The notes under the pieces: generated by a model | What the model saw: the letters and a program-made list of their open reading frames with translations, nothing else | What the model was told of the DNA's origin: nothing | The model's database searches: none | Translations under genes and position numbers: made by a program | Assembly (NCBI GenBank): GCA_014894395.1 | Contig: JADBLO010000072.1 | Coordinates: 130,351-194,350, forward strand | DNA from: Thermoplasmata archaeon | Lineage (GTDB): Archaea > Thermoplasmatota > E2 > DHVEG-1 | Length of the DNA: 64,000 nt | Reading direction: 5' to 3' | In this document: one piece after another, positions 1 through 64,000 of the stretch | Layout: the number at the start of each line of letters is the position of its first letter | How positions within the stretch are numbered: position 1 is the stretch's first letter

Positions 1-211
1 TTCCCCATGGATGAGAATCGATAACCACATTCCTATTAAAAGGTATTTCTGCTTTTACAAACAATTTCTTGGAGGTTCTATCCTCTACGATTACGTTTAG
101 ACCAATGGCCATTCCACAGTCATCCCAACAGGTATCATTTGTTCATCCTGAGCAAGTTCATTCGCAGTATCGGTGAGTGCATCGATATATATTGTAGGAG
201 TCCTCTCGCGA

Positions 212-8581: not shown

Positions 8582-10444
8582 TTGAATCGGAAAGGGTTGG
8601 CTGTTGGATTAATTCTTCTCTTCATTGTTTCGATAGTTGCTCCAATGGGAATTGGAAATAAAACAAATTCAACAAAGAATTATGAAAAGTACAATCTTAA
8701 TAGTTATCATATTTCTGAAGTATACAACAACGAAAAACAAATTCGTAGGAATCTTGTTCCTGATACTGTTATTTCTGATGTTTCAGTCTCTTATAAGGGA
8801 ACAGCATCTCCATCTAACGTTTTAGGTCCAATGAATTCCTCGTGGCCGATGTACTGCCATGATACGCACCATACTGGAAGAAGTCCTTATAGCACTGCTG
8901 ATAATCCACCAGGACACATGAAATGGCGCTTTGAAAATGATAAGATTGGCTGTCTTTATGGATCATCGGCTATTGATTCCAATGGAATCATTTATTTTGG
9001 AGGTGTAGACTTTTTTGCACTCTATCCCAATGGAACATTGAAATGGCAATATCCGATTGAAGGGTGGAGCGAGTCCTGCCCAGCAATTGACGATAACGGA
9101 ACAATTTATGTCGCCACAGCATATGGAGATCCAAATTATATTTACGCAATATATCCAAATGGCACCCTAAAATGGAGATATTGGATAGGGGGAGCAACAA
9201 ACATATTATCTTCGCCGGTAATAGGACTAGATGGGACAATTTTCTTTGGTTGCGGACAGTCCATAGTTGCACTCTATTCGAACGGAACACTTCGCTGGCA
9301 ACATTCGACAAATCACCTTGTCTATTCATCTCCAGCCATCGGAGATGATGGGACTGTCTATTGCGGCTGTCATGACACTTATTTATACGCTCTTTATCCG
9401 AACAATGGGACCGTAAAATGGATGTTTAAAACAGGGGATTGGATTCGGGTCAGCCCCTGCATCGCTGATGACAGCACCATTTATTGCGTTTCACTTGATT
9501 CTTATCTGTATGCCATAAATCCAAATGGAACGATGAACTGGAAAACAAACGTTGGCGCTGGAACATCACCAACCATAGGACAAGATGGAACCATTTATGC
9601 AGGGTGGAGTAATCTTTACGCAGTTAACCCAGATGGCTCGGTGAAATGGATTTATAGTTCCGCTGGAGGAATCGAAGGTGGTACGCCGTGTACATCTCGG
9701 GAGGGAATTATCTATTTTGGGACATACAATGGTTATCTCATTGCAGTAAATCCAAATGGTACTGAAGCATGGAAAGCACCTATTGGTCAATGCCAGTCAG
9801 CTCCAGCAATAGATGAGGAGGGAAACCTCTACATTGGTGGAATGGATGGCAATTTGGTTGGTTACCTTTATGCCTTTGGCCCAGGAGGAGTATTAAAAGT
9901 AGAAGCAAACGGCCCCTACAATGCAATGTATAATCAATCCGTTCAATTCGCAGGTACTATCTATGGTGGTATACCACCATATAACTGTCACTGGGACTTT
10001 GGAGATGGAAATACCTCAGAAGAACAAAACCCCAAGCATACCTATTGTCAGATTGGATCTTTTAATGCCACATTCAACGTGACCGATTCGGAAGGCAACT
10101 ACAGTTCTGATACAGCAAAAGTTACCATTATTGCTAGATGGCCTTTGGTCACTATTACAAAACCAGTGAATGGCATCTATCTTATGGATAAGAGAATCCT
10201 ACCTTTCTCCAAACCTGTCATCATCGGTAAAATCACAATCCAAGTAGAAGCGACACAGGAACCATTTGGCATTGAACGTGTTGAATTTTATATTGATGAC
10301 ACACTGAAGGCAACCGATACCGAAACTCCCTATCAATGGACATGGAGCACACCAGCCTTCTTCAAACACACCATCACCGCAGTTGCATACGATACCTCTG
10401 GGAAAAGCACGGGAAAATCTATCGAGGTGTCGAAGTTTTTCTAA
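8582..10444 (+). CDS. Secreted PQQ-like beta-propeller repeat protein with PKD-like domain and C-terminal Ig-like domain
   Basis: 620 aa. TTG start with a GAGGA RBS. N-terminal signal/anchor. Repeated ~40-aa units (NGTLKWQY / DGTIYFG / LYALYPNGT) typical of PQQ/WD-like propellers. PKD-like segment WDFGDGNTSEEQNPKHTY. C-terminal Ig-like domain shared with 26420..28303. Confidence 0.6.
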   Translation: MNRKGLAVGLILLFIVSIVAPMGIGNKTNSTKNYEKYNLNSYHISEVYNNEKQIRRNLVPDTVISDVSVSYKGTASPSNVLGPMNSSWPMYCHDTHHTGRSPYSTADNPPGHMKWRFENDKIGCLYGSSAIDSNGIIYFGGVDFFALYPNGTLKWQYPIEGWSESCPAIDDNGTIYVATAYGDPNYIYAIYPNGTLKWRYWIGGATNILSSPVIGLDGTIFFGCGQSIVALYSNGTLRWQHSTNHLVYSSPAIGDDGTVYCGCHDTYLYALYPNNGTVKWMFKTGDWIRVSPCIADDSTIYCVSLDSYLYAINPNGTMNWKTNVGAGTSPTIGQDGTIYAGWSNLYAVNPDGSVKWIYSSAGGIEGGTPCTSREGIIYFGTYNGYLIAVNPNGTEAWKAPIGQCQSAPAIDEEGNLYIGGMDGNLVGYLYAFGPGGVLKVEANGPYNAMYNQSVQFAGTIYGGIPPYNCHWDFGDGNTSEEQNPKHTYCQIGSFNATFNVTDSEGNYSSDTAKVTIIARWPLVTITKPVNGIYLMDKRILPFSKPVIIGKITIQVEATQEPFGIERVEFYIDDTLKATDTETPYQWTWSTPAFFKHTITAVAYDTSGKSTGKSIEVSKFF

Positions 10445-16062: not shown

Positions 16063-19029
16063 TTATTGCCCTTCGTTGCACGGTTCGTATGTGTTTAACG
16101 CCGGATCACCAAAGAGTATGTATTCCTGGAAGCTCACGTATTTTGATTCCATCATTGGACTAAGGCCCTTAGATGCTGTGCTCTTGTATAAATCAGCATA
16201 GTTGTTATTTGCCAATTCAATGTCTAACATTGCGTTTCCAGTGTAAATATTGAGTGGTGGCGACCACCAGAGCTGCCAGGGTGCATCTGCGGGTAAATAG
16301 TTGTTTTTTGCGTTTCTAAGCGCTAATCCTACACTGGTGTTGTATTGTTTCATATCGGCACACACATCTTCATATATCTTCTCCCCAAAGTGTGCATCTG
16401 GGAAGATTCCTTTATTCCATTGACCCTTTGCTCTTATGTATTTTAGATATGTTTGGATTGGTAAATCGTATTTTGTTTTCTTTGGTTCAAGATAACCGCC
16501 ACCAATATTTGACCCAGTAGGTGATGCAATAAGAGAAGCTACTCCTGCATGTAATAACGATTGACCAATATTCGCCCGTCCATACATTCCATCGATTTTT
16601 CCACATATACAGCTTTCCAACCACATAAACGATGGCCCAAGATTCATGTTTGATACTGTTCTTGTATCATAGTCACCTACGGCACTTAAGTCTCCTCCGG
16701 GGCCCATGAAACCACCGCCTATCGGTATAATAGTTTGAATAAGCAATGCTTTCATTAATGGGCCACCAAGTCCTGATGCCACGATATCATTTCCGCCCAC
16801 ACCAAATAGCTGTTGATTACCATGACCGTTTACAAACAAAAAGTTGCTTGACTCAAATATATCTCCGCCTATAACACTACCTTCCCCGACTAGTTTTCTT
16901 ACCTGCCATTTTTCAAAGAAGAGTCTGTTTAAGAGGGTACTCTTTTTAATTTTGTATAGAGTTTCTTCGCTAAGTCCCTTTGCCATACCCTCTTCATATA
17001 AAGCCCCTTGCAAGTTGAATCCTAATGGTTCCACAACCTCAGATGCGGCTCGTTTATATGTCATTTCAGCGTAACCCGTGAAGGCTTTCATAGGTTCTCC
17101 ACGTTTAACTTTTTTAAGTATGTCACCAAAGATTATGTATCTGACTAATGGTTTTTGGAAATCCTGCCCTCCACCAACTAAAAGACCAAAGTTATCCTTC
17201 CATGTCTCCAAGGTGCTCGTAAGTTCATTATAGAACACACTTTTAAGTATCAATGCATCTGCATCCTGAGCATCCCAACCGGTTATACGACCTACAATGT
17301 TTTCTATGAAGGGGTATTTCTCCTCAGTGTCACTGTATACATCATTTGCTAAATTAGACCAGTCATAACGTATTGGGTCAATATTACCGTAGAGAACATC
17401 ACTTGGGGTTCCACCACCGCTATAGTAGGGTGTATCATCAACACCATCTCCATCAAGGTCCCCAATAGGTTCAACATGATTTTGATAGTAGTAATTCGGA
17501 AGAACGGTCCCATCACCAACTAAAGCAATATACACAGGACTTTTTTTATAATGGTCTCTTAAACCTTTGATATCTCGATCATCATTCATTGGAAGACCCG
17601 CAAGTTTTGCAAGTAAGGTATTCAAAGGATCATGTATTTCATCAAAAAAATGTTTATTTGATATAGGTACCAGTTTCGGATTTTTCCCGCCCACGTATAT
17701 ACCAGGGCAGGTTTCTCCGCTATCAGTAATTATATTATCATCAGCTGTAAACGCAAACTCAGGTTTACCAAAAATAATCCCTCCATGGTATGCAGTCAAA
17801 TAAGGTGCAACAGATGAAAGACATTTCATCATTGGATACACTGGATTTTCGAGTTTCTCAACGACAACTCGAGCTGATACTTCACCTTCTTTTTTAACTA
17901 ACCAGCTACCGGAAGCACCAATAGTATACTCAACCCCACCTCGGCCATAAACTACAGTTTCAGAATATATAACATCTTTGGTTATTTTACCACTTGCATC
18001 TCTTTCGGCGATACCACCGGCAGCTGTATCACCTGGATGAGCTTCATAGTTTTGTAAACCGAAGGGCAATTCTTTTAAATTAGGACCCATTGTAAACGAT
18101 GCCGAATCTCCCATATCATCAGAATTTTCAGCATCATGGTTAATACCCTCAAATTTAATCAATGCATACTTGTAATCCGAAGGTATTGTGTAACTCCATG
18201 TGACCGAGCCTTTACCTGTTGCCATACCAAGAAGAGCTCCTACAAGCTGGCTCATAGAGCTTGTTTTTATTTTTTCAGGTCCAAAGTTAAACTCTACACT
18301 ACCTAACACCTCAGGTGGCCAAGCATCTACTGGATTTGTAAGAGTAATATAGTCGACTTTCTGGTTAAGTTTATTTTCAACAATTTCAATAGATGCATTC
18401 ACAATCTCATCAACAGAATCAAATTTTAAAACATCACCGTAACCCTCGATATTTTCACCACAGACAAGGGTTTTTTTCACACCAAGATCGCTAAGAACGC
18501 TGGTCACATCAGAATCCATTTCTTGAGTTACAATGACTGGTATTCTAAGATAAGAAGCTATAGGTGTCGCCACTACACCTAAATTATATCCAGGTTCATC
18601 GTATTCAATAATTAAAGCCGCTTCACTGCTATCCCAGTAGTCTTTAGCAATCCTTAAAGAGGCGTTTTTGGCAGATTCATCATCTTCAATTATTTCACCT
18701 TGTTTACTGCCATCTAATTGAGCTTTCAGTCTTGTAATTGCTGTTGAGGGGGTTGTAAAATTCATTACGTAAAGTGGTATCACTGTTCGTTCACCATTTT
18801 CATCATAATTCACTGCCAACGGTGTCGCTATAAGTGGATAAAATGGACAGCTATCAGAAACAGTAATAGAACCGGGCATATCTTTCAAGTCACCAGTAAC
18901 ACCAATAAATTCGTTTGCTTTCACCGACTCCATTTCTGTTTTTTCTGGAACCCAATAATATATACCAATTGAAGCAAAAATAAGTATAGCTACTCCAAAT
19001 ACTACAATTATTTTATCATTTTTCATCAT
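16063..19029 (-). CDS. Large (988 aa) membrane-anchored surface protein with putative clan CD cysteine peptidase (gingipain/C25-like) domain
   Basis: N-terminal signal anchor. Candidate catalytic dyad in the order VNGHGNQQ ... WLESCICGK, the His-Gly then Cys arrangement of clan CD enzymes. Confidence 0.5.
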   Translation of the reverse strand: MMKNDKIIVVFGVAILIFASIGIYYWVPEKTEMESVKANEFIGVTGDLKDMPGSITVSDSCPFYPLIATPLAVNYDENGERTVIPLYVMNFTTPSTAITRLKAQLDGSKQGEIIEDDESAKNASLRIAKDYWDSSEAALIIEYDEPGYNLGVVATPIASYLRIPVIVTQEMDSDVTSVLSDLGVKKTLVCGENIEGYGDVLKFDSVDEIVNASIEIVENKLNQKVDYITLTNPVDAWPPEVLGSVEFNFGPEKIKTSSMSQLVGALLGMATGKGSVTWSYTIPSDYKYALIKFEGINHDAENSDDMGDSASFTMGPNLKELPFGLQNYEAHPGDTAAGGIAERDASGKITKDVIYSETVVYGRGGVEYTIGASGSWLVKKEGEVSARVVVEKLENPVYPMMKCLSSVAPYLTAYHGGIIFGKPEFAFTADDNIITDSGETCPGIYVGGKNPKLVPISNKHFFDEIHDPLNTLLAKLAGLPMNDDRDIKGLRDHYKKSPVYIALVGDGTVLPNYYYQNHVEPIGDLDGDGVDDTPYYSGGGTPSDVLYGNIDPIRYDWSNLANDVYSDTEEKYPFIENIVGRITGWDAQDADALILKSVFYNELTSTLETWKDNFGLLVGGGQDFQKPLVRYIIFGDILKKVKRGEPMKAFTGYAEMTYKRAASEVVEPLGFNLQGALYEEGMAKGLSEETLYKIKKSTLLNRLFFEKWQVRKLVGEGSVIGGDIFESSNFLFVNGHGNQQLFGVGGNDIVASGLGGPLMKALLIQTIIPIGGGFMGPGGDLSAVGDYDTRTVSNMNLGPSFMWLESCICGKIDGMYGRANIGQSLLHAGVASLIASPTGSNIGGGYLEPKKTKYDLPIQTYLKYIRAKGQWNKGIFPDAHFGEKIYEDVCADMKQYNTSVGLALRNAKNNYLPADAPWQLWWSPPLNIYTGNAMLDIELANNNYADLYKSTASKGLSPMMESKYVSFQEYILFGDPALNTYEPCNEGQ

Positions 19030-39287: not shown

Positions 39288-41033
39288 TTATTTTTCCTTC
39301 TTCGCTTCATTGACTTCTTCTTGTTTCTTCTGTTTTTCTTTCAGAATGGGAAATGTTTCTTTTTCTTCAAAGAATTTCGCGTGCGCTGAAATTTCGATAA
39401 GACCTGCCATGATCAGGAGAATACCGGCAAACATCAGCAGATAGACTCCTATCCCGAAACCCCATTGCAGATGTACAGATCCTCCTCCATCAACCCCGGA
39501 GAGTTGGACAGTGTATTGACCATTGAATGGAGCTGCAGACACCGCATTCATCGCACTGAACACATCGGTATTTCCTTTGATATTGACAGGAGCAAACTGA
39601 GGAATAACAGATCCGAGCGCCAGGACAAAAATAAATATCAGGATGAAGGGCACTAGGAGTCGGATCCCGCGGAGAATATATTTTTTACCGAGTTTTTTAC
39701 TCTGTGAAATTCCAATCGTTGAAAGGACAAGGAACACAAGTCCAATACCTAGAATGAGGTAGAAGGGAAGAGCAAACGTTCCAAGAGGAACCGGCCCACT
39801 TCTGTCAGGAAGCCGTATTTGTATTCCATTGATGCCATCAATCGAGACTGCATTGAACGTGCCTGTTTCCTGGTACGATGGTATGGAGACATTTGCCGTA
39901 ACGGTGTACCACGGAAGGAATAAACCGATGATCGCAACGATGATCGCAACAATACAAAGGATGTTCCCGATGCTTTTTGCGTTTACGCCATCAATGTAGA
40001 AGAGCGAGAGTTTTCTGGGTCCGAGACCATGTTTCTTATGGCGTCGGTAGATGAAAAAGCCAAGGAGAAGAAGAGACAGCAAGGTAACAAGGAAAAACAA
40101 CATGACGAAGTTATAGACGAACCATTCGAGGATGAAGACCGTATCGTTTGCTGGTTGGAGGCTACCCGCCCAGGAAAGAGGCTGCCACATGGTACCATCT
40201 TCTCTAAACATAGGTCCATTTGGTCCTGCTTCCCCCAGGATCGCTGCTTCAGCTGCCGCTGATTGGTTTGCTCCAGCCCAGCCCCAGCGTCCAGCAAAGG
40301 CTAACCAAGGTTGATCTGCTAGAACCTCGATAGTGTAATCTGTTGGTCGTAACACCTTTCCATTGTCACCAACAGTATCACTTGCTAAGCCGATTTTTCC
40401 AGAATACGGTTTGATGTAGTTGGCATGGCTTCCTCGTGCCACATAGACTTTCACGTGATTTCCTTCTTTTTCTACCTGGCTCCAGGTTGCTGTTTGGCCT
40501 GCGTAATGCTGGCTGAACATCACTTGGGTTGGTTGTTCCCCGGAGAGAACAACTTGGATCATCTCCCAGTCGCTTTCATGGTGATTCAGATCACCACCGT
40601 TGAACGCGTAGAAAAACCAGTATTGAATGATGTTGCTTGTTGTATCAACATGAGCGTAGACTTTGTACCCAAGCGTCGCCATCTTACTCTGATAGTCATT
40701 CTCGATACCATTATCGTCTACTTGCACAGTCCCCTGTGTATTATCAAGGTAATAGGTATCTAAGGTGTCCTTTGTCAGTTGAGAGGCATTGATTGGCGAT
40801 GTTAAGCGCGGGGTCGGGTTCCCAATCTCGTATAATTCACAGGTTTGAAAAGCATAGGAGACATTAACAGGATAACATTTCTCTCCATTGACAAAATAGA
40901 GGATAGGAGCATATTTTTCTGCAAGATCCTGATCTGCGGCAGATACGGTTCCTATGTAACTACTTCCAATGACAAGTAGGCCTATCACTAGCGTTATTAT
41001 GATTATTTTTTTGTTCATAAACCTCCACCGCAT
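39288..41033 (-). CDS. Membrane protein: N-terminal extracytoplasmic domain with NPP1/Vps62-like HxxxDWE motif, then a multi-TM region and a K/E-rich tail
   Basis: 581 aa. Signal anchor. YAPILYF and GGDLNHHESDWEMIQVV motifs. Then ~6 TM helices. C-terminal KEKQKKQEEVNEAKKEK. Confidence 0.45.
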   Translation of the reverse strand: MRWRFMNKKIIIITLVIGLLVIGSSYIGTVSAADQDLAEKYAPILYFVNGEKCYPVNVSYAFQTCELYEIGNPTPRLTSPINASQLTKDTLDTYYLDNTQGTVQVDDNGIENDYQSKMATLGYKVYAHVDTTSNIIQYWFFYAFNGGDLNHHESDWEMIQVVLSGEQPTQVMFSQHYAGQTATWSQVEKEGNHVKVYVARGSHANYIKPYSGKIGLASDTVGDNGKVLRPTDYTIEVLADQPWLAFAGRWGWAGANQSAAAEAAILGEAGPNGPMFREDGTMWQPLSWAGSLQPANDTVFILEWFVYNFVMLFFLVTLLSLLLLGFFIYRRHKKHGLGPRKLSLFYIDGVNAKSIGNILCIVAIIVAIIGLFLPWYTVTANVSIPSYQETGTFNAVSIDGINGIQIRLPDRSGPVPLGTFALPFYLILGIGLVFLVLSTIGISQSKKLGKKYILRGIRLLVPFILIFIFVLALGSVIPQFAPVNIKGNTDVFSAMNAVSAAPFNGQYTVQLSGVDGGGSVHLQWGFGIGVYLLMFAGILLIMAGLIEISAHAKFFEEKETFPILKEKQKKQEEVNEAKKEK

Positions 41034-43260: not shown

Positions 43261-46200
43261 ATGGCTGAGATTAACAAGAAAAACGATCAACCACGTGATA
43301 TTAACGAGGAAATGAAACGTGCTTTTATTGATTATTCCATGAGTGTGATTATGAGCAGGGCCCTCCCGGACATTCGTGATGGGTTAAAACCGGTTCATCG
43401 AAGAATTTTACATGCAATGAATGAAATGGGAATGGGGTATGAGAAATCGTATAAGAAATCTGCTCGAGTGGTCGGAGAGTGCTTTGTTAAAGATACATTG
43501 GTTCTTACAGAACAAGGACTCATACCGATACAAGATGTAAAAAAGGGAGATGCAGTCTATACTCAAGATGGCTTAGAGAATGTCAAAGAGCTATACATAA
43601 TGCCCAAGCGAGATCTTGTTAAAATTATCTTAGAAAATGGACTAGATGCTATTGTTACAAAATCACAAAAATTTAAGGTACTTACACCAGATTGGAAATT
43701 TATCTGGAAAGAAGTTAGGGAGCTTACCGAAAATGATTACATTGTTATAAAATCCGATTATCCTGACATTAAAAATCAGGTAAGAATTGGAGAAAAATTA
43801 TTAAATAAAAATATCGCGTATCTCCTTGGTCAATTAATTTCCGATGGATGGGTTGAAAAAAGCCAGAGACTCGGCTTTTATTCGAATAGTTTATCTATAA
43901 TAAAAAGAATTGAAGGAATTTTACAAGAAGAATTTGAATATTTTCCTACTGTTGAACAAATAGAATACGAATATGAAACTTCTAATGGGTTAGTTTTGCT
44001 CAATAAGGGTTTCCAAATACGTATCAATAGTAAAACAATAAATCAATATTTAATCCAAGAGTATCATCTCTTGGGTATTAAAGCTGAAAATAAAAAAATA
44101 CCTCAACAAATTTTCCAAAGTCCTAAGGATGTCATTTTTTCATTTATCAGCGGTTTGATTGATGGCGATGGTAGCATTCATAAAGAAAGGAATGTCATTC
44201 ATTATGGTACTGTTTCAAAAGAACTGGCAAATCAACTGATAATACTCCTGCATCATTTCGATATCCATGGAGTTAAATATCTTGAAAAAACTAAAACAGG
44301 TGGTATTGTCTGTGGGAGAAATATTGCACGTACACTTCCATTTTTTTCTTTAGAGTTTAGAGGTGAATGTGCACAAAAATTAGGGATCGAGTTGAATCTC
44401 GCTGAAGAAGAAAAATTACAAAAATTAAAAGAATTATTAAGCTATAAAGTAGGAAAATCAAATTTCGAAATTTTACCATATGGCAGTAAAAAAATCTTTA
44501 GCGAATTAAGCGATTGCCATTTAGGTGGTGGATGGTATCAAGATATAGAGGGAAAAAAAATTAGATCGGGAATAAAATATCCCTCGGGGACAAAGATACG
44601 ATACTCTAAAGAATTGCATGATAAACCCTTACGAATTTCTCAAATAATCGAATGGGGGATACAAAACAAAATAAAAAAAATCGGTTCTGATTTATATGAA
44701 TTTATCGAGAGAATTATCACTGAAAAAATATACTTTTTAAAAGTGAGTGGTATTGAGGAAGGCGGAAGAGAAGAAACTTATGATCTTCAGGTCGAAAACA
44801 AACACGAATTTATTGCCAATGGCATGCTTGCACATAATTGTCTTGGTAAGTATCATCCTCATGGAGATCAAGCTGTATATGATTCATTGGTACGAATGGC
44901 TCAGGATTTCTCGTTGCGTTATCCGTTAATCGCTGGTCAAGGTAATTTTGGTTCTGTCGATGGGGATTCCCAGGCTGCGATGCGATACACAGAAGTAAAA
45001 ATGGCCAAGATCACAAAGCTTATGCTGCAGGATATCGAGAAAGAAACAGTTGAATGGCGTGACAATTTTGATGGCACCTTAAAAGAACCTGAGGTTCTTC
45101 CAGCGATTTTACCGAATCTTCTGGTGAACGGATCGTCTGGTATCGCGGTTGGTATGGCCACGAACATGGCGCCTCATAACATCTGTGAGGTGATCGATGG
45201 TACTATCCGGATGATTGACGCTCCTGAGACATCGACTGCGGAGTTAATGGAGATTATTAAAGGACCTGATTTTCCGACAGGCGGTATTATCTTTGGTCGT
45301 GGTGGTATCCTTTCTGCGTATTCCACGGGACGCGGTTCACTTGTTGTCCGTGCGAAAACCTCCATTGAAGAAGGTGAACAAAAAAATAAAATCATTGTTC
45401 ATGAGCTGCCGTACCAGGTGAATAAATCTGTTCTTCTGCAAACAATCGCTGAGCTTGTCAAAGAGAAGAAAATTGAGGGCATCTCTGATCTTCGCGATGA
45501 AAGTGATCGAAAAGGCATGCGCATTGTCATTGAGTTGAAACGTGACGCTATCGATGATGTTGTATTGAATCAATTGTTTGAACATACTGAGTTACAATCT
45601 TCATTTGGTGTGCTGAATCTTGCGATTGTCAAAGGCGAGCCAAAGGTTCTGATGCTGAAAGAAATTCTTCAGCATTACATTGAATATAGAATAGAAATTA
45701 TTACGCGACGTACCACCTATGATCTGAAGAAAGCGAAAGAAAAAATACACATCCTTGAAGGCCTCATGATTGCGCTGCGGAACATCGATGAAGTCATTAA
45801 GATCATCCGACAGAGCAAAGAAGTTGAGGAAGCCAAAAATCGACTGATAACGCGCTTTAAACTTTCTGAGATTCAAGCAAAAGCCATCCTTGACATGAGG
45901 CTGCAGAAACTCACTGGTATGGAAATCGAGGCTGTTGAAAAAGACTACAAAGAAACCAAACAACTGATTGAACAACTCGAAGCCATCCTTGCAGACAAGC
46001 AAAAGATCCTTGCTGAAATCAAACGAGAGTTGCTCGAGATTAAAGAAAAATTTGGGGACGCGCGACGCACCCAGATCGTGGAAGGAGACGCAGGCATCGA
46101 TATAGAAGACCTCATACCTGTCCAGGAAGTCGTTGTAACCATTACAAAAGACGGTTATATTAAACGTATTCCGACGGAAACCTATCATACACAACATCGT

Positions 46201-47487
46201 GGCGGGAAAGGACTTATTGGTGTACGGCCAAAACAAGAAGATTTCGTAGTTGATTCGTTTATCACCAGCACCCATGATTATCTGATGTTTTTCACGAATC
46301 ACGGGCGGGTTTACTGGATGAAAGGCTATAAGATCCCTGAAGGAGACCGCCATGCAAAAGGAAAAGCCATCATCAACTTACTCCCACGACTTGAAGAAGG
46401 AGAAAAAATTGAAACCGCGGTTCCTATCCATGAGTTTGATGATAAACATTTCTTGATTTTTGCAACAAAACAAGGCACGATTAAAAAGACGGTGTTGTCT
46501 GCGTATGGTAATATCCGGGTGAATGGGATCATTGCCATAAAACTTGAGGAAGGCGATGAGCTCATGGGCGTGGAACTCTCCGATGGAACCAAGACCGTGA
46601 TGATCGCAACCGCTGGTGGTCAGGCCTGCAGGTTTAATGAAAAGGAACTCAGGCCGATGGGACGGGCAACCAGGGGCGTGATTGGTATCCGGCTTAAGAA
46701 CAAGAATGATGCGGTGGTCGCTTTGACCGTGGTGGATATCACAGGTTCGTTGTTTACGATTACAGAAAACGGTTTTGGGAAACGATCCCCGATTGATGAA
46801 TACCGGATGACTCATCGGGGAAGCAAAGGAGTACGAACAATTGTTACCAATGAGCGAAACGGAAACGTGGTGTTCGTTAGTCAGGTCACTGATGAAAACG
46901 AGCTGATTATTACAACTGAGCATGGAATGACCGTACGAATACCGGTACGGGACATCAGGGAACAAGGTCGGAACACGATGGGTGTGCGAATCATGCGTTT
47001 GAACGAGGGCGACAAGGTTGTTTCTGTCACTATTACAAAAATGTTGTCCGAAAACGGAGTGAAATGCGAGGTTGCATCAGCAGAACAGATGCCAATCGGT
47101 ATGATTGCTGAACAGCCCCAGAAAGAAGAACCAGCAGCACCAGTTGAAGAGGCTGAGGAATTACCAAAAGAAGTCAAAGAATCCTTTCCGGTTGTTAAAC
47201 CAGCGGAACCCGAAAAAACAGTAACGAAGCCTGAGGAATCAAGAAAAATCGAGAAGCAAAAGAAAGAAAAAGTAAAGATAGTACCGCTAATAAAAGGCAA
47301 AGGAAAACCACTGAAAATAAAAAAAGCAGCTCCAGCGAAAAAGAAACCAGTTCAAAAGAAGAAGGAAAAACCAGTGAAAAAACTAAAAGCAGTAAAACCA
47401 AAGAAGGTTAAAACAAAACCGGTGAAAAAACTAAAGAAACCTCAGAAGAAAAAAATCTCTGAAAAGAAAAAACCAAAGCGAAAATGA
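43261..47487 (+). CDS. gyrA: DNA gyrase subunit A, containing an intein and a C-terminal K/P-rich tail
   Basis: 1408 aa. GKYHPHGD, AAMRYTE (active-site Tyr). C-terminal beta-pinwheel repeats. 453-aa in-frame insertion. Last ~125 aa are Lys/Pro/Ala-rich. Confidence 0.9.
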   Translation: MAEINKKNDQPRDINEEMKRAFIDYSMSVIMSRALPDIRDGLKPVHRRILHAMNEMGMGYEKSYKKSARVVGECFVKDTLVLTEQGLIPIQDVKKGDAVYTQDGLENVKELYIMPKRDLVKIILENGLDAIVTKSQKFKVLTPDWKFIWKEVRELTENDYIVIKSDYPDIKNQVRIGEKLLNKNIAYLLGQLISDGWVEKSQRLGFYSNSLSIIKRIEGILQEEFEYFPTVEQIEYEYETSNGLVLLNKGFQIRINSKTINQYLIQEYHLLGIKAENKKIPQQIFQSPKDVIFSFISGLIDGDGSIHKERNVIHYGTVSKELANQLIILLHHFDIHGVKYLEKTKTGGIVCGRNIARTLPFFSLEFRGECAQKLGIELNLAEEEKLQKLKELLSYKVGKSNFEILPYGSKKIFSELSDCHLGGGWYQDIEGKKIRSGIKYPSGTKIRYSKELHDKPLRISQIIEWGIQNKIKKIGSDLYEFIERIITEKIYFLKVSGIEEGGREETYDLQVENKHEFIANGMLAHNCLGKYHPHGDQAVYDSLVRMAQDFSLRYPLIAGQGNFGSVDGDSQAAMRYTEVKMAKITKLMLQDIEKETVEWRDNFDGTLKEPEVLPAILPNLLVNGSSGIAVGMATNMAPHNICEVIDGTIRMIDAPETSTAELMEIIKGPDFPTGGIIFGRGGILSAYSTGRGSLVVRAKTSIEEGEQKNKIIVHELPYQVNKSVLLQTIAELVKEKKIEGISDLRDESDRKGMRIVIELKRDAIDDVVLNQLFEHTELQSSFGVLNLAIVKGEPKVLMLKEILQHYIEYRIEIITRRTTYDLKKAKEKIHILEGLMIALRNIDEVIKIIRQSKEVEEAKNRLITRFKLSEIQAKAILDMRLQKLTGMEIEAVEKDYKETKQLIEQLEAILADKQKILAEIKRELLEIKEKFGDARRTQIVEGDAGIDIEDLIPVQEVVVTITKDGYIKRIPTETYHTQHRGGKGLIGVRPKQEDFVVDSFITSTHDYLMFFTNHGRVYWMKGYKIPEGDRHAKGKAIINLLPRLEEGEKIETAVPIHEFDDKHFLIFATKQGTIKKTVLSAYGNIRVNGIIAIKLEEGDELMGVELSDGTKTVMIATAGGQACRFNEKELRPMGRATRGVIGIRLKNKNDAVVALTVVDITGSLFTITENGFGKRSPIDEYRMTHRGSKGVRTIVTNERNGNVVFVSQVTDENELIITTEHGMTVRIPVRDIREQGRNTMGVRIMRLNEGDKVVSVTITKMLSENGVKCEVASAEQMPIGMIAEQPQKEEPAAPVEEAEELPKEVKESFPVVKPAEPEKTVTKPEESRKIEKQKKEKVKIVPLIKGKGKPLKIKKAAPAKKKPVQKKKEKPVKKLKAVKPKKVKTKPVKKLKKPQKKKISEKKKPKRK
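43480..44838 (+). mobile_element. Intein (453 aa) with LAGLIDADG homing endonuclease inside GyrA
   Basis: ARVVGE|CFVKDTLVL ... FIANGMLAHN|CLGKYHPHGD. Starts with Cys, ends His-Asn, +1 Cys. LAGLIDADG blocks YLLGQLISDGW and FISGLIDGDGS. Extein junction aligns with E. coli ARVVGDVIGKYHPHGD. Confidence 0.8.
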
Positions 47488-56810: not shown

Positions 56811-59800
56811 TTATGGTGACTGTTCTCGTGTCAGGAGAATATTCAGGTCTTTTGGTGTATCACCAATAGTGAGTGTGATTTGTCCGGTGCCGGTATATGT
56901 TATATTTTGACCGCTTTCATTGACAAGTTCTTCAACACTTGCGTTATATGAGCCTGGCGCCAGTTCGGTGGTGTAATTTCCATTGCTGTCGGTTATCACG
57001 CTTTTTGCTACTGCAGTATTTTCCGCAATTCGTAAATCCTCTGAGAAGAGAATGGTCATGTTTGCTTTCCCTACACCATTGTATTTTGTAGTTCCGCTGA
57101 CAGTAACAGATACTTTGGTAGCGGCGATGTTGTAAGATGCAGTTCCTTCTCCGACGGAAACAGTTAGTTTGTCTGTAAAGGTGTATACCGTGGTTGCTGC
57201 CTCTGTTTTTTTGACGGTAACATTGTATGTTCCTGGTGTGAGTTTAGCTACGTAGAGTCCCTGAGCATCAGATGTCGCAGAAATTTGTTTTGTTGCGGTG
57301 TTGTTTTGTATTGATTTGTCAGGGGCGAATGTAACTGGGATGCTGCCAAGATTGACTGTAGCATAAGTTGTATATCCGCTGACAATGACTGGAGCATAGG
57401 TAAGGGAGATGTTAACCCAGGATGTTTTGTTTGCGGTAAGGGTAACTGTTTGTTCGGTGACGTAGTCAAGGTTTCCTGTGCTGGTATTTTGTTTTGTCGC
57501 ATTCAAGGTGTATACTCCCGGAATTAATGAGGGAAAAGAATAGGTTCCTGCGGTACCTGTAGTTATAGTGGTGACTGATTTTTGGGTGTCATCGAGTTTG
57601 GTGTAGGTGAGTTGAATTTGCACGTCGCTTGCTTCCTCACCAGTAGTGTATTTCTTATCAACATTACTATCGGTATAGACAACTCCTTTTACTTCAGCTA
57701 ATTTTGGTTTTGAGATGTTGTACGAGTTATTGCCAGGTTCAATATTGATAGGTTCTCTGTTAAGGAGGGTGTATTCATTTTCAACTGCAGAGATATTGTA
57801 TTTACTTGGGTATAAATTACTGAAAACGTAGTGTCCTTGTAGGTCTGTTGTCACCGGTTGGACCGGCCTTCCGAAATAATAATCGTTTAATTCGATGGTA
57901 ATCCCAGATAATGGGGTATCACTGGCTTGTTCGTAGGAACCGTTGTTGTTGTTATCCTGATAGACAAAACCTTCCAGGGTTGAAAGGCTCACATTGATGT
58001 TGAAGTTACGTGAATATTTCGAACCGTTGAGACGCATGGCTTCTGCGTCCGTCACTGGAGAATATAACATATTATTGGTGTTGTTAAACGTGATTTTTTT
58101 CAGGAGCACTTCGTTGGCGTAGGTGAAAAGCAGAGTGATATTGCCACCAGGTGCAAGGAGGTTGAAACTACCGTTTGCATCAGTCGCCATGTTATCGTGT
58201 GGGAACCCGTAGTCATCAAGGATTGCGACCGTTACATAGGGAAGTGTGGTGTTGTTGCAGCTGATGGAACCGTTGAAGAACGCGCCTTCATAGTACTTCG
58301 CGATGACCACTGCGCTTCTGCCTTGCCCGTAGTAGGGGTAGGGTGAAACATAGACCGGGATGAAATGCCTCATAGCATAGCAGGGGATTTGTTGATTTGG
58401 TGTTTGATAGTATCCACTCTGATCTTGTTGCGGGGGGGTACCAATGTAGGTTCGATAGAACATGGTGTTGAAATAATCTTGTTTGTTAATGGTTGTAGTT
58501 CCTGTGACGGCGATACGGTTTCGCTGCTCCTGGAGCATATCGTTGAGTTCTTTTGCCGTCCATTGACCATCAGGGCCCTGGGATCCATCTGTATTTACCG
58601 AATAACCCGTGTATATGACCTGGATGAAATCGTCCTCGGGGTTGTGGAACTGTTTTCCTGCGGTTCGAAGCGCGGTTAAAACGTTGCTTTTATCGCCAAG
58701 GAACGCGAAGATGTTGAAAATCTGCTCGTCATATCCTTCCACCCCGTAGTACCGAATGCTGTAGCCAGTGGCTTGCTGGATATCATGGTATAACCATGTG
58801 ATTTGTTCATCGGTTAAGGTATCGTTTAAAAGTTTTTCGATATCGTGATAATAAGCGTTTTCAGGATATTGCGCTCCCACGAGCAGGGTCTTGCTCAGAT
58901 TAACGTCATATTCTGCTCCGATTGCCTTCTTCTGCGAGGGAGAAAGCGCGGGATTAAGCATCCAGGATGTAATTTTGGTTGTATTGTTATTCCCAAGATG
59001 TTTCTGAAGTGCAGTAATGACTGAATCAGAGAAGGCTATGTCGTCGTTATCTTTTCGATTCCCTTCTAATAATCGGACAATCCAGACTGCGATCCCTTGT
59101 TTTTCACTTTTTGCGGTATGGAAATTAGCTGCAGGTGAAATTCCGTCTTGGAAGTTATCAGCGACGGTCGGATGCGCTCCAACCGCAACTTCGTAGAACC
59201 CGTAGTCCCACCAGGAGATAAAACCAGGTCGTTTTGATGGATCCGCGATGTTTGTGTCTTGTTTGTTTAGCCAAGCATAGGCGGCGACCCAGTATTGCTC
59301 CTTGTAAGAGCTAGAGCCGAACGCAGAGGAATGATTTTCTCCGAAGAAATCATATTTCAAATTACTCGTACCGTTTTTTGATGCAGCCGATGGTACCGCC
59401 GCATCGAGTGCGAGGTACCCATTAGGGATGAGAATAAGGAGAGCGACAAAGAGAACCCCGAAAACGTGGTAGATTCTCACGCCTTTTCGTATGCCTCGGA
59501 TACCACCGCCTGCGTTCCTTATGTTTCGTGCCATTTGTTTGTAGTCGATCTTACTAATCAAAAACCAAATAATCCATCCCGCAAGGAGGGCGATGAGGGG
59601 TACCATGTCGTTAAGGAAACGACCAGCGGTTGATGTCAGCCAGATGTTGATGACGAATAATGAAAGGATGAAGAGGTAGTCACGTCGTCCTTTCTGTTTC
59701 ACATATTGGTAGATAAGAAACGCAAAGCCAGCCCAGGCAAGCCAGTACAATACAGGGCCGTACGACATCACGGTTCTGCTCATATTATATGTTCCTGCCT

Positions 59801-60980
59801 CTGCGATCGTAAGGGATACCTTTGACCCATAAATCCCAGCACCATAGATGAGTTCTGCGATTTTCCCTAACGGCGAGAATATTGTCAATGTTTTAGGATA
59901 TGCATAGACGACGTAGAGAAATGCTGTTACGGCTCCTGCAATAACACCAATCAATGGGAGTGAAACGACCCAGGGGATTTTCTTCCGTTTGAAAAGAATA
60001 CAGAGGCCACCGAAGATTAAAACCCCTATTGCTAGATAGAAAGGAAGGTTTAAGATGACACCTCGTGCGGCGGTGACCGGCCATGAAACAAGAACTCCAG
60101 TGAATAATGCAAGGAAGATGTTGATAACAAATCGTTCTTCGAGCTTATTCATGAAAATATCTATTAAAAGTTGTACAACTGCATAAACGGTGATAATTGT
60201 GTAGAGGTATTGTGCTTCTACCCAAACCATAGAAAGAGCTGCAAGCGGGATTCCTGCGAGGAGCGCGTAGAGAATTGAGCGTTTCATATCTTTTTCCTTG
60301 ATGCTTTTAATTAAAAAGAGGAAGGTGAGGAAATATAAGAGCAGGTTGAACGAGTCGTGGTCAAACAGACCATATGCGGAACCATGTCCTGAGCTAATAT
60401 GAATAGGTATGATCGCGATGAGGAGCGCGGCGACGAGCCCGGCTTTCTTCCCGAATAATATTTTCCCGATGAAGTACACGGGGAAGACGAGCAAAGCACC
60501 AAATAACGCAGGGATAAACTCCATTGCGTACCCGATTGCATCTGCTTCACTCATAAAAGGGACAAGGAGTTTACTGAAACCGATCGCAGACATGACGAGC
60601 AACGGAGCACGACCTCCTGATTTCCCAAATGGATAGGCGAGCAGGGGATCGTTGGAAGAGAAAAAGGGAAAACGCCCGGTCTGTACTGTATTATCAACAA
60701 GCCGCATGTTATAGTACGGGTCAGGACCAGATAAATAGAACGTATCGGTCATGGTTGTTCCTGATGGGTTCATATTCACGTTTGATACGATGTTGAAATA
60801 GGAGTTCATGAATAAAACTAAGAAGAAAATTGCTATCAATGATACTCCAATCCACCAGTTTTTCTTGAATCGAAATCGCTTTCGTTCCGGGGCGTTTGCT
60901 ACGCCTACGGGTTGTGGAGTTGGAGCTGTTACTGATTGCGTTGGCGTTTTAAATTGTGCTCGTTTCCGCATACGTTTCAC
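56811..60980 (-). CDS. aglB: Oligosaccharyltransferase AglB (STT3 family) with ~500-aa C-terminal extension of four beta-sandwich (CarboxypepD_reg/Cna-B-like) domains
   Basis: 1389 aa. 13-TM N-terminal domain with GPDPYY acidic loop. Hallmark WWDYGFY motif. C-terminus has four repeats of ...TD..G.Y.F..L.PG.Y.V... Confidence 0.85.
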   Translation of the reverse strand: MKRMRKRAQFKTPTQSVTAPTPQPVGVANAPERKRFRFKKNWWIGVSLIAIFFLVLFMNSYFNIVSNVNMNPSGTTMTDTFYLSGPDPYYNMRLVDNTVQTGRFPFFSSNDPLLAYPFGKSGGRAPLLVMSAIGFSKLLVPFMSEADAIGYAMEFIPALFGALLVFPVYFIGKILFGKKAGLVAALLIAIIPIHISSGHGSAYGLFDHDSFNLLLYFLTFLFLIKSIKEKDMKRSILYALLAGIPLAALSMVWVEAQYLYTIITVYAVVQLLIDIFMNKLEERFVINIFLALFTGVLVSWPVTAARGVILNLPFYLAIGVLIFGGLCILFKRKKIPWVVSLPLIGVIAGAVTAFLYVVYAYPKTLTIFSPLGKIAELIYGAGIYGSKVSLTIAEAGTYNMSRTVMSYGPVLYWLAWAGFAFLIYQYVKQKGRRDYLFILSLFVINIWLTSTAGRFLNDMVPLIALLAGWIIWFLISKIDYKQMARNIRNAGGGIRGIRKGVRIYHVFGVLFVALLILIPNGYLALDAAVPSAASKNGTSNLKYDFFGENHSSAFGSSSYKEQYWVAAYAWLNKQDTNIADPSKRPGFISWWDYGFYEVAVGAHPTVADNFQDGISPAANFHTAKSEKQGIAVWIVRLLEGNRKDNDDIAFSDSVITALQKHLGNNNTTKITSWMLNPALSPSQKKAIGAEYDVNLSKTLLVGAQYPENAYYHDIEKLLNDTLTDEQITWLYHDIQQATGYSIRYYGVEGYDEQIFNIFAFLGDKSNVLTALRTAGKQFHNPEDDFIQVIYTGYSVNTDGSQGPDGQWTAKELNDMLQEQRNRIAVTGTTTINKQDYFNTMFYRTYIGTPPQQDQSGYYQTPNQQIPCYAMRHFIPVYVSPYPYYGQGRSAVVIAKYYEGAFFNGSISCNNTTLPYVTVAILDDYGFPHDNMATDANGSFNLLAPGGNITLLFTYANEVLLKKITFNNTNNMLYSPVTDAEAMRLNGSKYSRNFNINVSLSTLEGFVYQDNNNNGSYEQASDTPLSGITIELNDYYFGRPVQPVTTDLQGHYVFSNLYPSKYNISAVENEYTLLNREPINIEPGNNSYNISKPKLAEVKGVVYTDSNVDKKYTTGEEASDVQIQLTYTKLDDTQKSVTTITTGTAGTYSFPSLIPGVYTLNATKQNTSTGNLDYVTEQTVTLTANKTSWVNISLTYAPVIVSGYTTYATVNLGSIPVTFAPDKSIQNNTATKQISATSDAQGLYVAKLTPGTYNVTVKKTEAATTVYTFTDKLTVSVGEGTASYNIAATKVSVTVSGTTKYNGVGKANMTILFSEDLRIAENTAVAKSVITDSNGNYTTELAPGSYNASVEELVNESGQNITYTGTGQITLTIGDTPKDLNILLTREQSP

Positions 60981-61043: not shown

Positions 61044-61919
61044 TTAATTTTTGATGTGCGGGAGCGTTTTTAAGAGGAGTTCTGCGATGCAATCTGCGGC
61101 GCTGACCTTGCTGAACTCAGTTTCTATCGTGTCCGTTGAAATAATTTCATCGCAATCTGCAGACAGGAGTTTTTCTTTCGCACCACCGACAAATAATCCA
61201 TGGGTACATGCAACCGAGACTGTTTTAGCACCTTGCTTTTTCAACTCTTTAATAGAATTGGCCATAGTGCCGCCAGTGGAGATAATGTCATCGATGATAG
61301 CGACGTGTTTACCTCGGGCATCAAGTTTCTTTGGTGTTATCTTAACGGTAGTTCCATCGATACGTGTTTTCTCCAGGTAATCGTACTCGCAGTTGATGAG
61401 AGTCGCTGCTTCTTTGGCTCGGTCTTTAGCCCCCTTATCTGGTGCAAGGATAAAATCAATGTTTTTTTCTTTGAGATACTGGGCGATGGTTGAGACCGCG
61501 GAACAGCTATATGCAGGAACTGAAAAGAATTTCAGAATATGCTCCTTATGCGGATCAACAGTGATAACACAGTCAGCATGCATGCTGATGTGCTGTGCGA
61601 CAGCTCTTGAACTGATTGCTTCGCCCTCCTCGAATTTTTTATCTTGTCTGCTGTACCCAAAGTAAGGAAGGACGACCGTGATTTTCTTTGCGCCTGCATC
61701 ATGAACCGCGTCCTGCATGAGCAGGAGTTCAACAATTTTTGGATCAGGATATGCTGTTTGAACAATCAGGACGTCCTCACCTGCAATATCGTCTAACACG
61801 CGGACGTAAAATTCATCGTCAGGAAACCGTTTGTATGTTGCCTGTAGAAGCGGCTGCTGAATTTTGTTCGCAAGATTTTGTGCAACGTTTTTTGCTGATG
61901 TTCCCCCAAGTATGTACAT
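61044..61919 (-). CDS. prs: Ribose-phosphate pyrophosphokinase
   Basis: 291 aa. PRPP-binding loop IIDDIISTGGT. N-terminal PRPP synthetase domain. Confidence 0.85.
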   Translation of the reverse strand: MYILGGTSAKNVAQNLANKIQQPLLQATYKRFPDDEFYVRVLDDIAGEDVLIVQTAYPDPKIVELLLMQDAVHDAGAKKITVVLPYFGYSRQDKKFEEGEAISSRAVAQHISMHADCVITVDPHKEHILKFFSVPAYSCSAVSTIAQYLKEKNIDFILAPDKGAKDRAKEAATLINCEYDYLEKTRIDGTTVKITPKKLDARGKHVAIIDDIISTGGTMANSIKELKKQGAKTVSVACTHGLFVGGAKEKLLSADCDEIISTDTIETEFSKVSAADCIAELLLKTLPHIKN

Positions 61920-62015
61920 AATGCGACATCGTAAATGGTCGATGTCTTTTTAGTGATTTCGTAAGAAAGTTTTTATAAGAGTTTTTGCTTAATTCCTTAG
62001 AAGTGAGTGGATGAG

Positions 62016-64000
62016 ATGCGGCGACATCTATTGATACAGCCCATAGCGGTTATTCTCTTATTGATATCTGTCGTTTTTATTTACACGGCACCTGCGAGGG
62101 CCACAGCAGATAGCAACGTAGAGGCAACTATCACGTGTAGGTTTGAAACAGGGGCGCAGCTGATCGTCCGGTCGCAAATGATTGTCAATAGCATCAACGT
62201 ATTTGATACGACGTATGACAGACAAGCTATTGAGAATATGGCTACGACCAATCCGTATATCATGGGGGCAATCATGCTTCGCCTTCATGAATCAGTAAAA
62301 ACCCAGGTCGAATCAGCGTTTACCAATGCAGAGGTAGACACCATTAATGCGATGCCTTTGTATGAGAAACCATTTTTCATCGATGATTTTCGGGTGAATC
62401 TCACTGCAGCGTTTTTCCGTTACAATGGTTCCATGAATTTTACGAATTTCATTAGCGGCGTGCTCGACATGGGTGCGACAGCCACCTATCATTTTAATTT
62501 ACAAGCAGAGCATGGATGGAACACGACGTACATGTATGTGCTCCCAAGCACAATGACGCTAGCGTTCGCAAATACGCCAGATACAAATCCTGATACCAAT
62601 AAGGTCACCTGGGTGGTACGGAATTGGGATGGAAACGATACAGGAAAAGACGCAACGTTATCCATGAAATCGAAAAACCCGACAACACCGGCTTCAGAGA
62701 TCGAAGATATCGCCCTTGAATTTACCTTAGACACCAGAACAGTAGACGATATCAGTTTTACCGATTCCATTGTTGTCAAAAAAATGAACATCCACAGTTA
62801 CAATGTGTTGCCTGAGTTTATCACCGGATTAGGCATTATACCAGCGGATGGAGTACGATTATGTATCGATAGCGGACTGTTTTCCTGGACAGACCTGTTT
62901 GAAAAAACAATTCGGCCGATCGAACAACAGACCACTCCGATAATCGAGAATTCCTCTTTTCAACAAACCCTGAATTTTTCATTTACCTGGGATGCTGAAA
63001 GCACCACCAACTGTTCAACCCCGTACAACATTACCCATATGGATGACTCACCAGCGATACGCGCTGACTTCAAAGACCCTGACGTCCATCTGCAGATTTG
63101 CCAGATGCCAGCGAGAGCGTTCTTTGGATTGATGAATGCAGGGGCAACCGCGCCGATCTCATCAGCGGATGTAACCTTTGGCTCAGGGCTTGACGGAATC
63201 ATATACCCCTATGCGATCATGTTGCGTCTTCCCACAAACATCTCTCTGAACGGAGACAATGCGTATACCTGGAATAAAACAACACCTATCACCGGAACAT
63301 TCCGCTCAGGACTTCAACCAACACCCGCTTACACAGATGAATATATTGAGACGCGCGTTGAAATCGAGCTGTTGAAGATGGACTTGAACATCCCGAGTGT
63401 TTTTACTGGAAAAACCGAGTTAACGGCATCTACTAAGATGAAAGAAGATGATCGACTCTACGTGATCCGCCGGGATGGCGAACTTTCCTTTTCCCCGAAA
63501 ATAAATATGACATTTTTGAATTCAGATTCTTTCCGCCTTTGTACCGAAGAAAACGTCTTTAGCGAAAGTCAGATAAGCTCGTTTCTCTCACAGAAAACAG
63601 AGATGTTTCAACAGCGGCTGTCCGAGATCTTCCATGGACTGCGTGTGAAGGGTATAATCGACAGAAAAATTTTTTCCAATTCACTTGTGTGGGATGGAGA
63701 TATCTCTGCGATGGATAATGTTGTACCGGTCGTGGTTTCCAATTATGCAAATGAGGTATACGCAGTCGGATTCAATGTTTCGTTATGGCCTGCGGAGCTT
63801 ACGCTTGCACCGCAACGGTTTACCTTCCAGGGCGTGGAAAACCAGACCGTGACGTACCGGATTATCTTCCCACGAGGTATTACAGTCAACGCGAGTGATA
63901 GTGCGGGAAAGCCGCTTATCACAGGGAAAACAAATGATGGGCGAGATTATGTTGAGCTTTCTTTTGATGCGGAGTCAGCAACGGAATCAACCGTCCTTAC
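62016..64000 (+). CDS. Secreted, sequon-rich surface protein (partial, continues beyond window), candidate S-layer/cell-surface glycoprotein
   Basis: I translated this frame by hand from ATG 62016. It stays open to the window end (>660 aa). N-terminal signal peptide MRRHLLIQPIAVILLLISVVFIYTAPARA. At least 14 N-x-S/T sequons. Confidence 0.5.
   Translation, partial: MRRHLLIQPIAVILLLISVVFIYTAPARATADSNVEATITCRFETGAQLIVRSQMIVNSINVFDTTYDRQAIENMATTNPYIMGAIMLRLHESVKTQVESAFTNAEVDTINAMPLYEKPFFIDDFRVNLTAAFFRYNGSMNFTNFISGVLDMGATATYHFNLQAEHGWNTTYMYVLPSTMTLAFANTPDTNPDTNKVTWVVRNWDGNDTGKDATLSMKSKNPTTPASEIEDIALEFTLDTRTVDDISFTDSIVVKKMNIHSYNVLPEFITGLGIIPADGVRLCIDSGLFSWTDLFEKTIRPIEQQTTPIIENSSFQQTLNFSFTWDAESTTNCSTPYNITHMDDSPAIRADFKDPDVHLQICQMPARAFFGLMNAGATAPISSADVTFGSGLDGIIYPYAIMLRLPTNISLNGDNAYTWNKTTPITGTFRSGLQPTPAYTDEYIETRVEIELLKMDLNIPSVFTGKTELTASTKMKEDDRLYVIRRDGELSFSPKINMTFLNSDSFRLCTEENVFSESQISSFLSQKTEMFQQRLSEIFHGLRVKGIIDRKIFSNSLVWDGDISAMDNVVPVVVSNYANEVYAVGFNVSLWPAELTLAPQRFTFQGVENQTVTYRIIFPRGITVNASDSAGKPLITGKTNDGRDYVELSFDAESATESTVL

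Follow-up and report, generated by a model that had tools for sequence, protein, structure and literature searches.

Introduction

The closest described counterparts of the candidate surface protein analysed here are SlaB, the stalk protein of the Sulfolobales, the DUF1608 S-layer protein of Methanosarcina and the outer layer of the Thermoplasmatales. Our candidate resembles them in its predicted Sec signal peptide, its acidic ectodomain of repeated domains, its many sequons, its single C-terminal transmembrane anchor and the presence of nearly always a single gene per genome. It differs from them in that no sequence or fold relationship was detectable, that its module is of the alpha/beta type instead of a plain Ig-like sandwich, and that its cytoplasmic tail is conserved. 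Cryo-ET of cultured Thermoplasmatales showed no paracrystalline S-layer but a dense, unordered and probably glycoprotein layer, the components of which were not revealed by RNA-seq (PMC12448462). Because these cultured relatives have no paracrystalline S-layer, we use the terms major surface glycoprotein or membrane-anchored coat glycoprotein, which are safer than S-layer protein.

A second system that invites comparison is Ost1 (RPN1, ribophorin I), the non-catalytic subunit 1 of the eukaryotic oligosaccharyltransferase (OST), which has two similar beta-rich lumenal domains, whereas our candidate has three modules. Prokaryotic Ost1 homologues have been placed only in Asgard archaea (PMC10307638) or in Asgard and TACK archaea only (PMC11417166).

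Here, we analysed a long ORF that is cut by the end of a 64,000-nucleotide stretch of DNA from a Thermoplasmata archaeon, referred to below as the window. An initial annotation had proposed that it encodes an S-layer or major surface glycoprotein. We consider, with moderate confidence, a structural component of the envelope glycoprotein coat to be the most likely role of its product. The family is a concrete envelope-protein candidate for uncultured Thermoplasmatota of the Thermoprofundales/MBG-D type, a sediment lineage that is globally abundant. It is conserved, restricted to the phylum, encoded nearly always at a single locus, and composed of a predicted repeat module without a close solved structure, and it offers a practical target in metaproteomics and archaeal glycoproteomics as well as in work with antibodies or cryo-ET on enrichments.

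Results and Discussion

A conserved gene family of uncultured Thermoplasmatota

The ORF starts with an ATG at positions 62016-62018 of the forward strand and continues for 661 sense codons without a stop up to base 64000 (62016..64000, +; aa 1-661 of ~739), which agrees with the start and with the truncated reading frame of >660 aa that had been assigned to it. Its orthologue P0001 has 739 aa and shares 98% identity with the part encoded in the window; the window is thus short of only ~78 residues. Full-length homologues range from 716 to 753 aa.

A homologue search returned 163 proteins, none of which carries a Pfam domain, and when 1.84 billion representative proteins were searched exhaustively with a profile, just 245 clusters reached E-values of 1e-3 or lower. 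Searches against Pfam (with the window fragment and 64 members), NCBIfam and PDB profiles gave no match beyond noise from the helix and tail (TMEM154, Syndecan). All named members are hypothetical proteins from uncultured Thermoplasmatota/Thermoplasmata and, among them, the family is unannotated and restricted to uncultured Thermoplasmatota. The genome hits at the species level include SM1-50 and M11B2D, which we take to be MBG-D/Thermoprofundales MAGs. Nearly all genomes that have the gene carry it at one locus.

In comparisons with four orthologous loci, the dN/dS of the ORF was 0.11-0.17, indistinguishable from that of AglB (0.09-0.17), while that of prs was lower (0.05-0.14). The ORF is under purifying selection, and it is a real and conserved gene. 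A chance ORF or pseudogene, in favour of which only the lack of a stop in the window could be named, is excluded with near certainty by the 163 homologues, the low dN/dS, a confident AF2 model and a conserved promoter.

This promoter lies in the 96 bp that separate prs from the ORF, within a conserved intergenic block (61946..62003, +). The core of the block, TTTCGTAAGAAAGTTTTTATAAG (61957-61979, 23 nt), was invariant in nine orthologous loci; synonymous sites were saturated at the orthologous loci compared (dS above 1.2), yet the 23-nt core was unchanged. By comparison with the archaeal promoter consensus, we take TTTCGTAAGAAAGTTTTTATAAG to be an A-rich BRE-like element and a near-consensus TATA box located ~37-46 nt upstream of the ATG. 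The block is central between the divergent genes and may be used in both directions.

Predicted export, membrane anchor and cytoplasmic tail

Together, the features described in this and the following sections make it very probable that the ORF product is exported, membrane-anchored and N-glycosylated. Its architecture consists of a signal peptide, three tandem modules of ~200 aa, one C-terminal transmembrane helix and a basic cytoplasmic tail of ~40 aa. Basic residues flank both hydrophobic segments, and sequons are enriched between the two.

The initial annotation had assigned a signal peptide, and the N-terminus, MRRHLLIQPIAVILLLISVVFIYTAPARA|TADS, indeed resembles a Sec signal peptide (predicted for aa 1-29; 62016..62102, +). 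According to hydropathy (Kyte-Doolittle, 19-residue windows, maximum 2.7), a basic MRRH n-region is followed by a hydrophobic core at aa 3-25 and then by TAPARA/TAD. The putative cleavage site, ARA|T, has Ala at -3 and -1, and this small-x-small motif is compatible with signal peptidase I, by which the product would be cleaved. In the AF2 model, the signal region forms a helix (2-20) and a low-confidence linker (22-30).

The sequence downstream of the window, which we obtained through orthologues, does contain a C-terminal anchor, one of the features by which a surface protein was to be recognised. It is a single transmembrane helix that follows the ectodomain (aa 669-701 in orthologues; P0001 sequence and AF2 model). 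In the orthologue, the end that lies beyond the window reads ...SPVYVLGLFLPCILVFILLVVLVVIIYLIRKKRGGLRRGKGKLFEPEDNEPSDYGGQDYYVPPPPPSTKKKK and comprises the transmembrane helix, a basic cluster and the tail; in short form, it runs ...GLFLPCILVF...RKKRGG, and some 35 further conserved residues come after this cluster. PGF-CTERM had been named as another form that the anchor could take, and the sequence speaks against it, with no PGF motif and ~40 conserved residues after the helix. A substrate of archaeosortase A was likewise ruled out by the missing PGF motif and by a helix that is not at the extreme C-terminus.

The predicted cytoplasmic tail peptide, RKKRGGLRRGKGKLFEPEDNEPSDYGGQDYYVPPPPPSTKKKK, ends in YYVPPPPS-KKKK. 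Across 41 aligned sequences, YYVPPPP is invariant or nearly so, with Y727, P729, P731 and P732 strictly invariant, and the same holds for F676, P678 and C679, which form an F-x-P-C motif at the outer edge of the helix. When used as a search pattern, the tail motif found matches across 44 species. A passive coat protein would not need a conserved cytoplasmic tail, which hints at an intracellular partner. The tail and the invariant F-x-P-C are left unexplained by a passive coat role, and they leave room for a function in docking or reception, to which we assign a low probability.

In such a case, the protein would be a surface receptor or adhesin, the ectodomain of which binds a ligand, a partner cell or a substrate, and the YYVPPPPS-KKKK tail of which recruits a partner inside the cell. 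The near-invariance of the tail motif across the core family, the invariant residues at the helix edge and the single-pass type-I topology, which is typical for receptors, are all consistent with this reading. We nevertheless regard it as unlikely: Pfam and NCBIfam searches found no known ligand-binding or signalling domain, distant relatives have unrelated charged tails in place of the motif, and the presence of one locus in nearly all genomes, at a housekeeping position, suits a constitutive envelope component. A partner that binds proline motifs is also not known from Thermoplasmatota, which we count against a receptor or adhesin.

Three homologous alpha/beta modules

The ectodomain is divided into module A (aa 31-228; 62106..62699, +), delimited by hhalign and secondary structure, module B (aa 229-440; 62700..63335, +), which contains DGVRL and G(L/M)(M/I)NAGA motifs and the conserved pair C333/C362, and module C, which was delimited by hhalign and spans aa 441-667 in orthologues (63336..64000, +; the window ends at aa 661). 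Self-BLAST detected no internal repeats in the ORF product or in its longer relatives, and profile-profile comparison was needed to see them. Using a 64-sequence alignment, hhalign related A to B with a probability of 96.8% (E 3e-10), A to C with 95.4% (E 2e-8) and B to C with 99.2% (E 1e-19). Judged by these profiles, the three modules are homologous to one another.

The AF2 model of the full-length protein, which was based on the 41-sequence alignment, had a pLDDT of 84.1 and a pTM of 0.69 and shows a beta-rich ectodomain with recurring helices; for module B alone, the values were 85.8 and 0.82. One pattern recurs three times in the model, namely a long beta-hairpin, a short DG(I/V)RL helix, a long helix and a sheet with a G-x-(L/M)-(D/N)-(M/A)-G-A helix.

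In the fold search with a single module, PIG-T, a subunit of the GPI transamidase, ranked first. PIG-T, the N-terminal domains of M1 aminopeptidases and periplasmic beta-sandwich proteins of the PA4063/ZrgA type all had marginal scores and 3-10% identity to the module, which, unlike these comparators, has neither a metal-binding His cluster nor an attached catalytic domain. The fold hits included no solved surface protein such as fusexin or SlaB.

Neighbourhood of aglB and comparison with Ost1

The divergent neighbour of the ORF is prs, which encodes a ribose-phosphate pyrophosphokinase (61044-61919, -; Pribosyltran_N, 1e-30). Beyond it lies aglB (56811-60980, -), encoding an archaeal oligosaccharyltransferase of 1389 aa (STT3, 1e-22), the C-terminal extension of which is rich in sequons and built of beta-sandwich repeats; against TIGR04154, this AglB scored 199 bits, under the cutoff of 450. 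The starts of aglB and the ORF are 1035 bp apart, in accordance with the earlier statement that aglB lies 1 kb away on the other side of prs. At L001, the contig of P0001, a convergent geranylgeranyl reductase gene (GGR) follows, and only 2 nt separate its stop codon from the end of the family gene.

The order AMMECR1-aglB-prs-gene-GGR is kept in the close clade, and unrelated housekeeping genes further out (NucS, Cdc6, CDC48) are conserved as well. The gene adjoins prs-aglB in most informative orthologous loci. Upstream of the gene, aglB is missing at L042, which is a complete chromosome, and at L011 and L040, and it was not found near distant homologues at the loci examined. The convergent GGR is retained at L049 and L054, which carry distant homologues, and is a more persistent neighbour than aglB. 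Because the conserved block is long and made up of housekeeping genes, and because the adjacency to aglB is lost at some loci, synteny is not decisive on function.

An accessory partner of AglB that is similar to Ost1/ribophorin I could be read from this neighbourhood. The beta-rich tandem domains would then be placed next to the catalytic subunit and deal with chains that are nascent or have just been glycosylated, with the basic tail contacting the ribosome or translocon. In Ost1 as in our candidate, a signal peptide is followed by similar beta-rich domains in tandem, then by one transmembrane helix and lastly by a charged tail in the cytosol. The gene adjoins prs-aglB at most informative loci across the invariant promoter block, and the protein that ranked first for the single module, PIG-T, is an analogous subunit of the GPI transamidase. 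A collinear pattern ahead of the helix (hhhP-x-G-h ... D-x-GR ... TM) is also shared, at a level that is statistically insignificant.

The sequence comparisons speak against this reading. The Pfam family Ribophorin_I (PF04597) was matched by 0/64 diverse members at E up to 10, and hhalign against RPN1 and yeast Ost1 gave probabilities no higher than 1.6%, whether the whole family or a single module was compared, with a profile that is shallow, comprising 17 vertebrate sequences and yeast Ost1 from a PDB alignment. The human RPN1 query was confirmed to be identical to 6s7o_E, and its homologue search listed vertebrates only. Foldseek TM-scores were 0.14-0.22, so that the similarity is one of architecture.

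Adjacency to aglB is gone at the three loci named above and in distant homologues, whereas adjacency to GGR persists. After removal of shared divergence, evolutionary rates covaried between the target and AglB with r 0.48, which is not above GGR (0.46) or prs (0.36) to a degree that would single out AglB; the rate covariation with AglB is not specific.

We consider an Ost1-like accessory partner of AglB improbable, and it is slightly more doubtful still that Thermoplasmatota have, in this gene placed beside aglB across a shared promoter, a divergent AglB partner of the Ost1/ribophorin-I type. As a demonstrated Ost1 homologue, the protein was rejected on the results for PF04597 and hhalign with its shallow profile. 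Were the Ost1-like reading true, OST accessory subunits would no longer be confined to Asgard/TACK archaea and eukaryotes, and a multi-subunit oligosaccharyltransferase, or at least a subunit-1 scaffold, would exist outside these groups.

Sequons are conserved in position and common to exported proteins

The ORF contains 15 N-x(not P)-S/T sequons compared with 7.2 +/- 2.4 expected from composition-preserving shuffles, 4/2000 of which reached this number. All 14 sequon types that had been listed when the ORF was first described as sequon-rich were recovered, and NLT has to be added to them, for a total of 15. Thr is the commonest residue of the ORF (10.6%), with Ser at 7.6% and Asn at 6.4%. Their sum of 24.5% is the highest among the 44 ORFs of the window (median 16.2%), which bears out the Thr/Ser/Asn-heavy composition that had been noted. 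The ectodomain is acidic (D+E 77 vs K+R 47), and His accounts for 1.2% of the protein.

Per 100 aa, we counted 2.27 sequons in the ORF, 2.42 in a PQQ/PKD protein encoded at 8582-10444 (sequon enrichment z 3.9), 4.7 in the C-terminal extension of AglB and about 0-0.9 in the cytoplasmic proteins of the window. Sequon enrichment is therefore general to the exported proteins of the window and not special to this ORF. Because sequons are dense in exported and sparse in cytoplasmic proteins, N-glycosylation appears to shape the exported proteins; because exported proteins are generally sequon-rich, the high density points to a protein that is outside and probably glycosylated, and not to an S-layer.

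In the 41-sequence alignment, at least 12 sequons are conserved in position, among them 11 in at least 33/41 sequences (P0001 numbering: N128, N169, N312, N332, N338, N408, N420, N497, N587, N609 and N625) and N141 in 31/41. This positional conservation argues that the sequons are used and that the glycans matter, and the ORF product is probably N-glycosylated.

A membrane-anchored coat glycoprotein as the preferred reading

According to the model that we favour, the N-terminal signal peptide would route the chain through the Sec translocon, and ~640 residues would be exposed outside the cell in the form of three homologous tandem alpha/beta modules. Glycans would be attached to this exposed part by AglB, the presumed enzyme, at no fewer than a dozen conserved Asn-x-Ser/Thr sites. 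The single C-terminal transmembrane helix would hold the protein in the membrane, and the short basic, proline-rich tail (YYVPPPPS-KKKK) would face the cytoplasm. Anchored in this way, the protein would be a lineage-specific type-I membrane glycoprotein of the envelope. As such, it would be a structural component of the surface glycoprotein coat of these Thermoplasmatota, which are wall-less or of uncertain S-layer status; this coat could be an ordered S-layer or an unordered layer as in cultured Thermoplasmatales.

Of the original proposal of an S-layer or major surface glycoprotein, the exported, anchored and probably glycosylated protein stands; the S-layer itself found no counterpart in a family or fold match, and the sequon density is ordinary for an exported protein. 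The comparison with known S-layer proteins that had been suggested matched neither a family nor a solved structure, as Pfam, NCBIfam, PDB profile and fold searches gave no sequence or fold similarity to described S-layer families or solved S-layer structures. Codon bias, used as a proxy for expression, gave no sign of exceptional expression: the ENC of the ORF was 54.6, which is mid-range for the window (47-61) in a genome with weak codon bias. At close range, AglB, GGR and our protein diverge at similarly slow rates. Such slow divergence is below what we would expect for an exposed major antigen and counts against the coat role.

The coat reading can also be viewed against the distant relatives, which have 700-1469 aa and keep the same plan of signal peptide, module motifs, one transmembrane helix and charged tail. 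Judged by eye, the longer relatives contain more copies of the DG(I/V)R(L/M)...NGL and GA-helix motifs, which suggests that they carry extra copies of the module. Extra module copies are a frequent trait of structural surface proteins, whereas an apparently variable number of modules is ill-suited to a fixed enzyme subunit of the Ost1 kind.

Conserved neighbourhood of the glycoprotein gene

A convergent geranylgeranyl reductase-like gene directly adjoins the glycoprotein gene at its 3′ end, the two stop codons being 2-4 nt apart or overlapping. The reductase-like gene lies at 12223-13416 of L001, the locus that encodes the full-length 739-aa orthologue P0001, and it is also found at the orthologous or homologous loci L002, L003, L004, L049 and L054. 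This arrangement recurs in nearly all loci, including those of two homologues of ~20% identity. The reductase-like gene is a more persistent neighbour than aglB. Genes for PcrB (GGGP synthase) and inositol monophosphatase belong to the same block. In orthologous loci (L002 14281-16265; L003 16330-18313), NucS and a Cdc6/Orc1 gene follow downstream in the block, so that a replication origin is probably located no more than a few kb from the glycoprotein gene.

On the upstream side, a block between prs and the glycoprotein ORF (window 61946-62003) is invariant in 9 loci, although synonymous divergence is saturated. Its single near-consensus TATA box, with A/T-rich elements on either side, could serve as a bidirectional promoter and so couple prs-aglB to the glycoprotein gene.

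Membrane edge and cytoplasmic tail of the glycoprotein

The cytoplasmic tail falls past the window end and was located in the orthologue (P0001 aa 702-739; L001 12104-12220). Its motif, (D/E)YYVPPPP(S/P)xKKKK, shows little or no variation across the core family, the place of this tail being taken in distant relatives by long Lys/Glu-rich tails. The transmembrane helix carries an invariant F676-x-P678-C679 at its outer edge.

C-terminal extension of AglB

The C-terminal ~490 aa of AglB (aa 901-1389; window 56814-58280, minus strand) consist of beta-sandwich repeats of the CarboxypepD_reg, SdrD_B or prealbumin-like type and carry 23 sequons (4.7 per 100 aa), the highest density in the window. 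A long glycosylated stalk appears to be part of the oligosaccharyltransferase itself. AglB matched TIGR04154, the archaeosortase-A-associated STT3 model, only below the cutoff.

Other proteins and inteins

An exported protein with PQQ-like beta-propeller, PKD and Big_7 domains (8582-10444, plus strand) has 15 sequons (z 3.9), an enrichment equal to that of the glycoprotein; the insertion sites of its paralogues differ between orthologous loci (L003, L011). A protein-degrading lifestyle has been proposed for MBG-D archaea, and a 988-aa protein with a signal-like N-terminus and a gingipain-like Peptidase_C25 domain (16063-19029, minus strand) fits this proposal. Its GC3 (0.29) and ENC (46.9) are both the window minima, possible signs of a foreign origin or of distinct expression. 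A 581-aa protein with ~6 hydrophobic segments (39288-41033, minus strand) weakly matches the eukaryotic Vps62 family (PF06101, E 1e-7).

Inteins occur in the anaerobic ribonucleotide reductase NrdD (3711-6848, minus strand) and in the gyrase subunit GyrA (43261-47487, plus strand), the GyrA intein having a LAGLIDADG endonuclease domain. CDC48 contains an intein at the orthologous locus L003.
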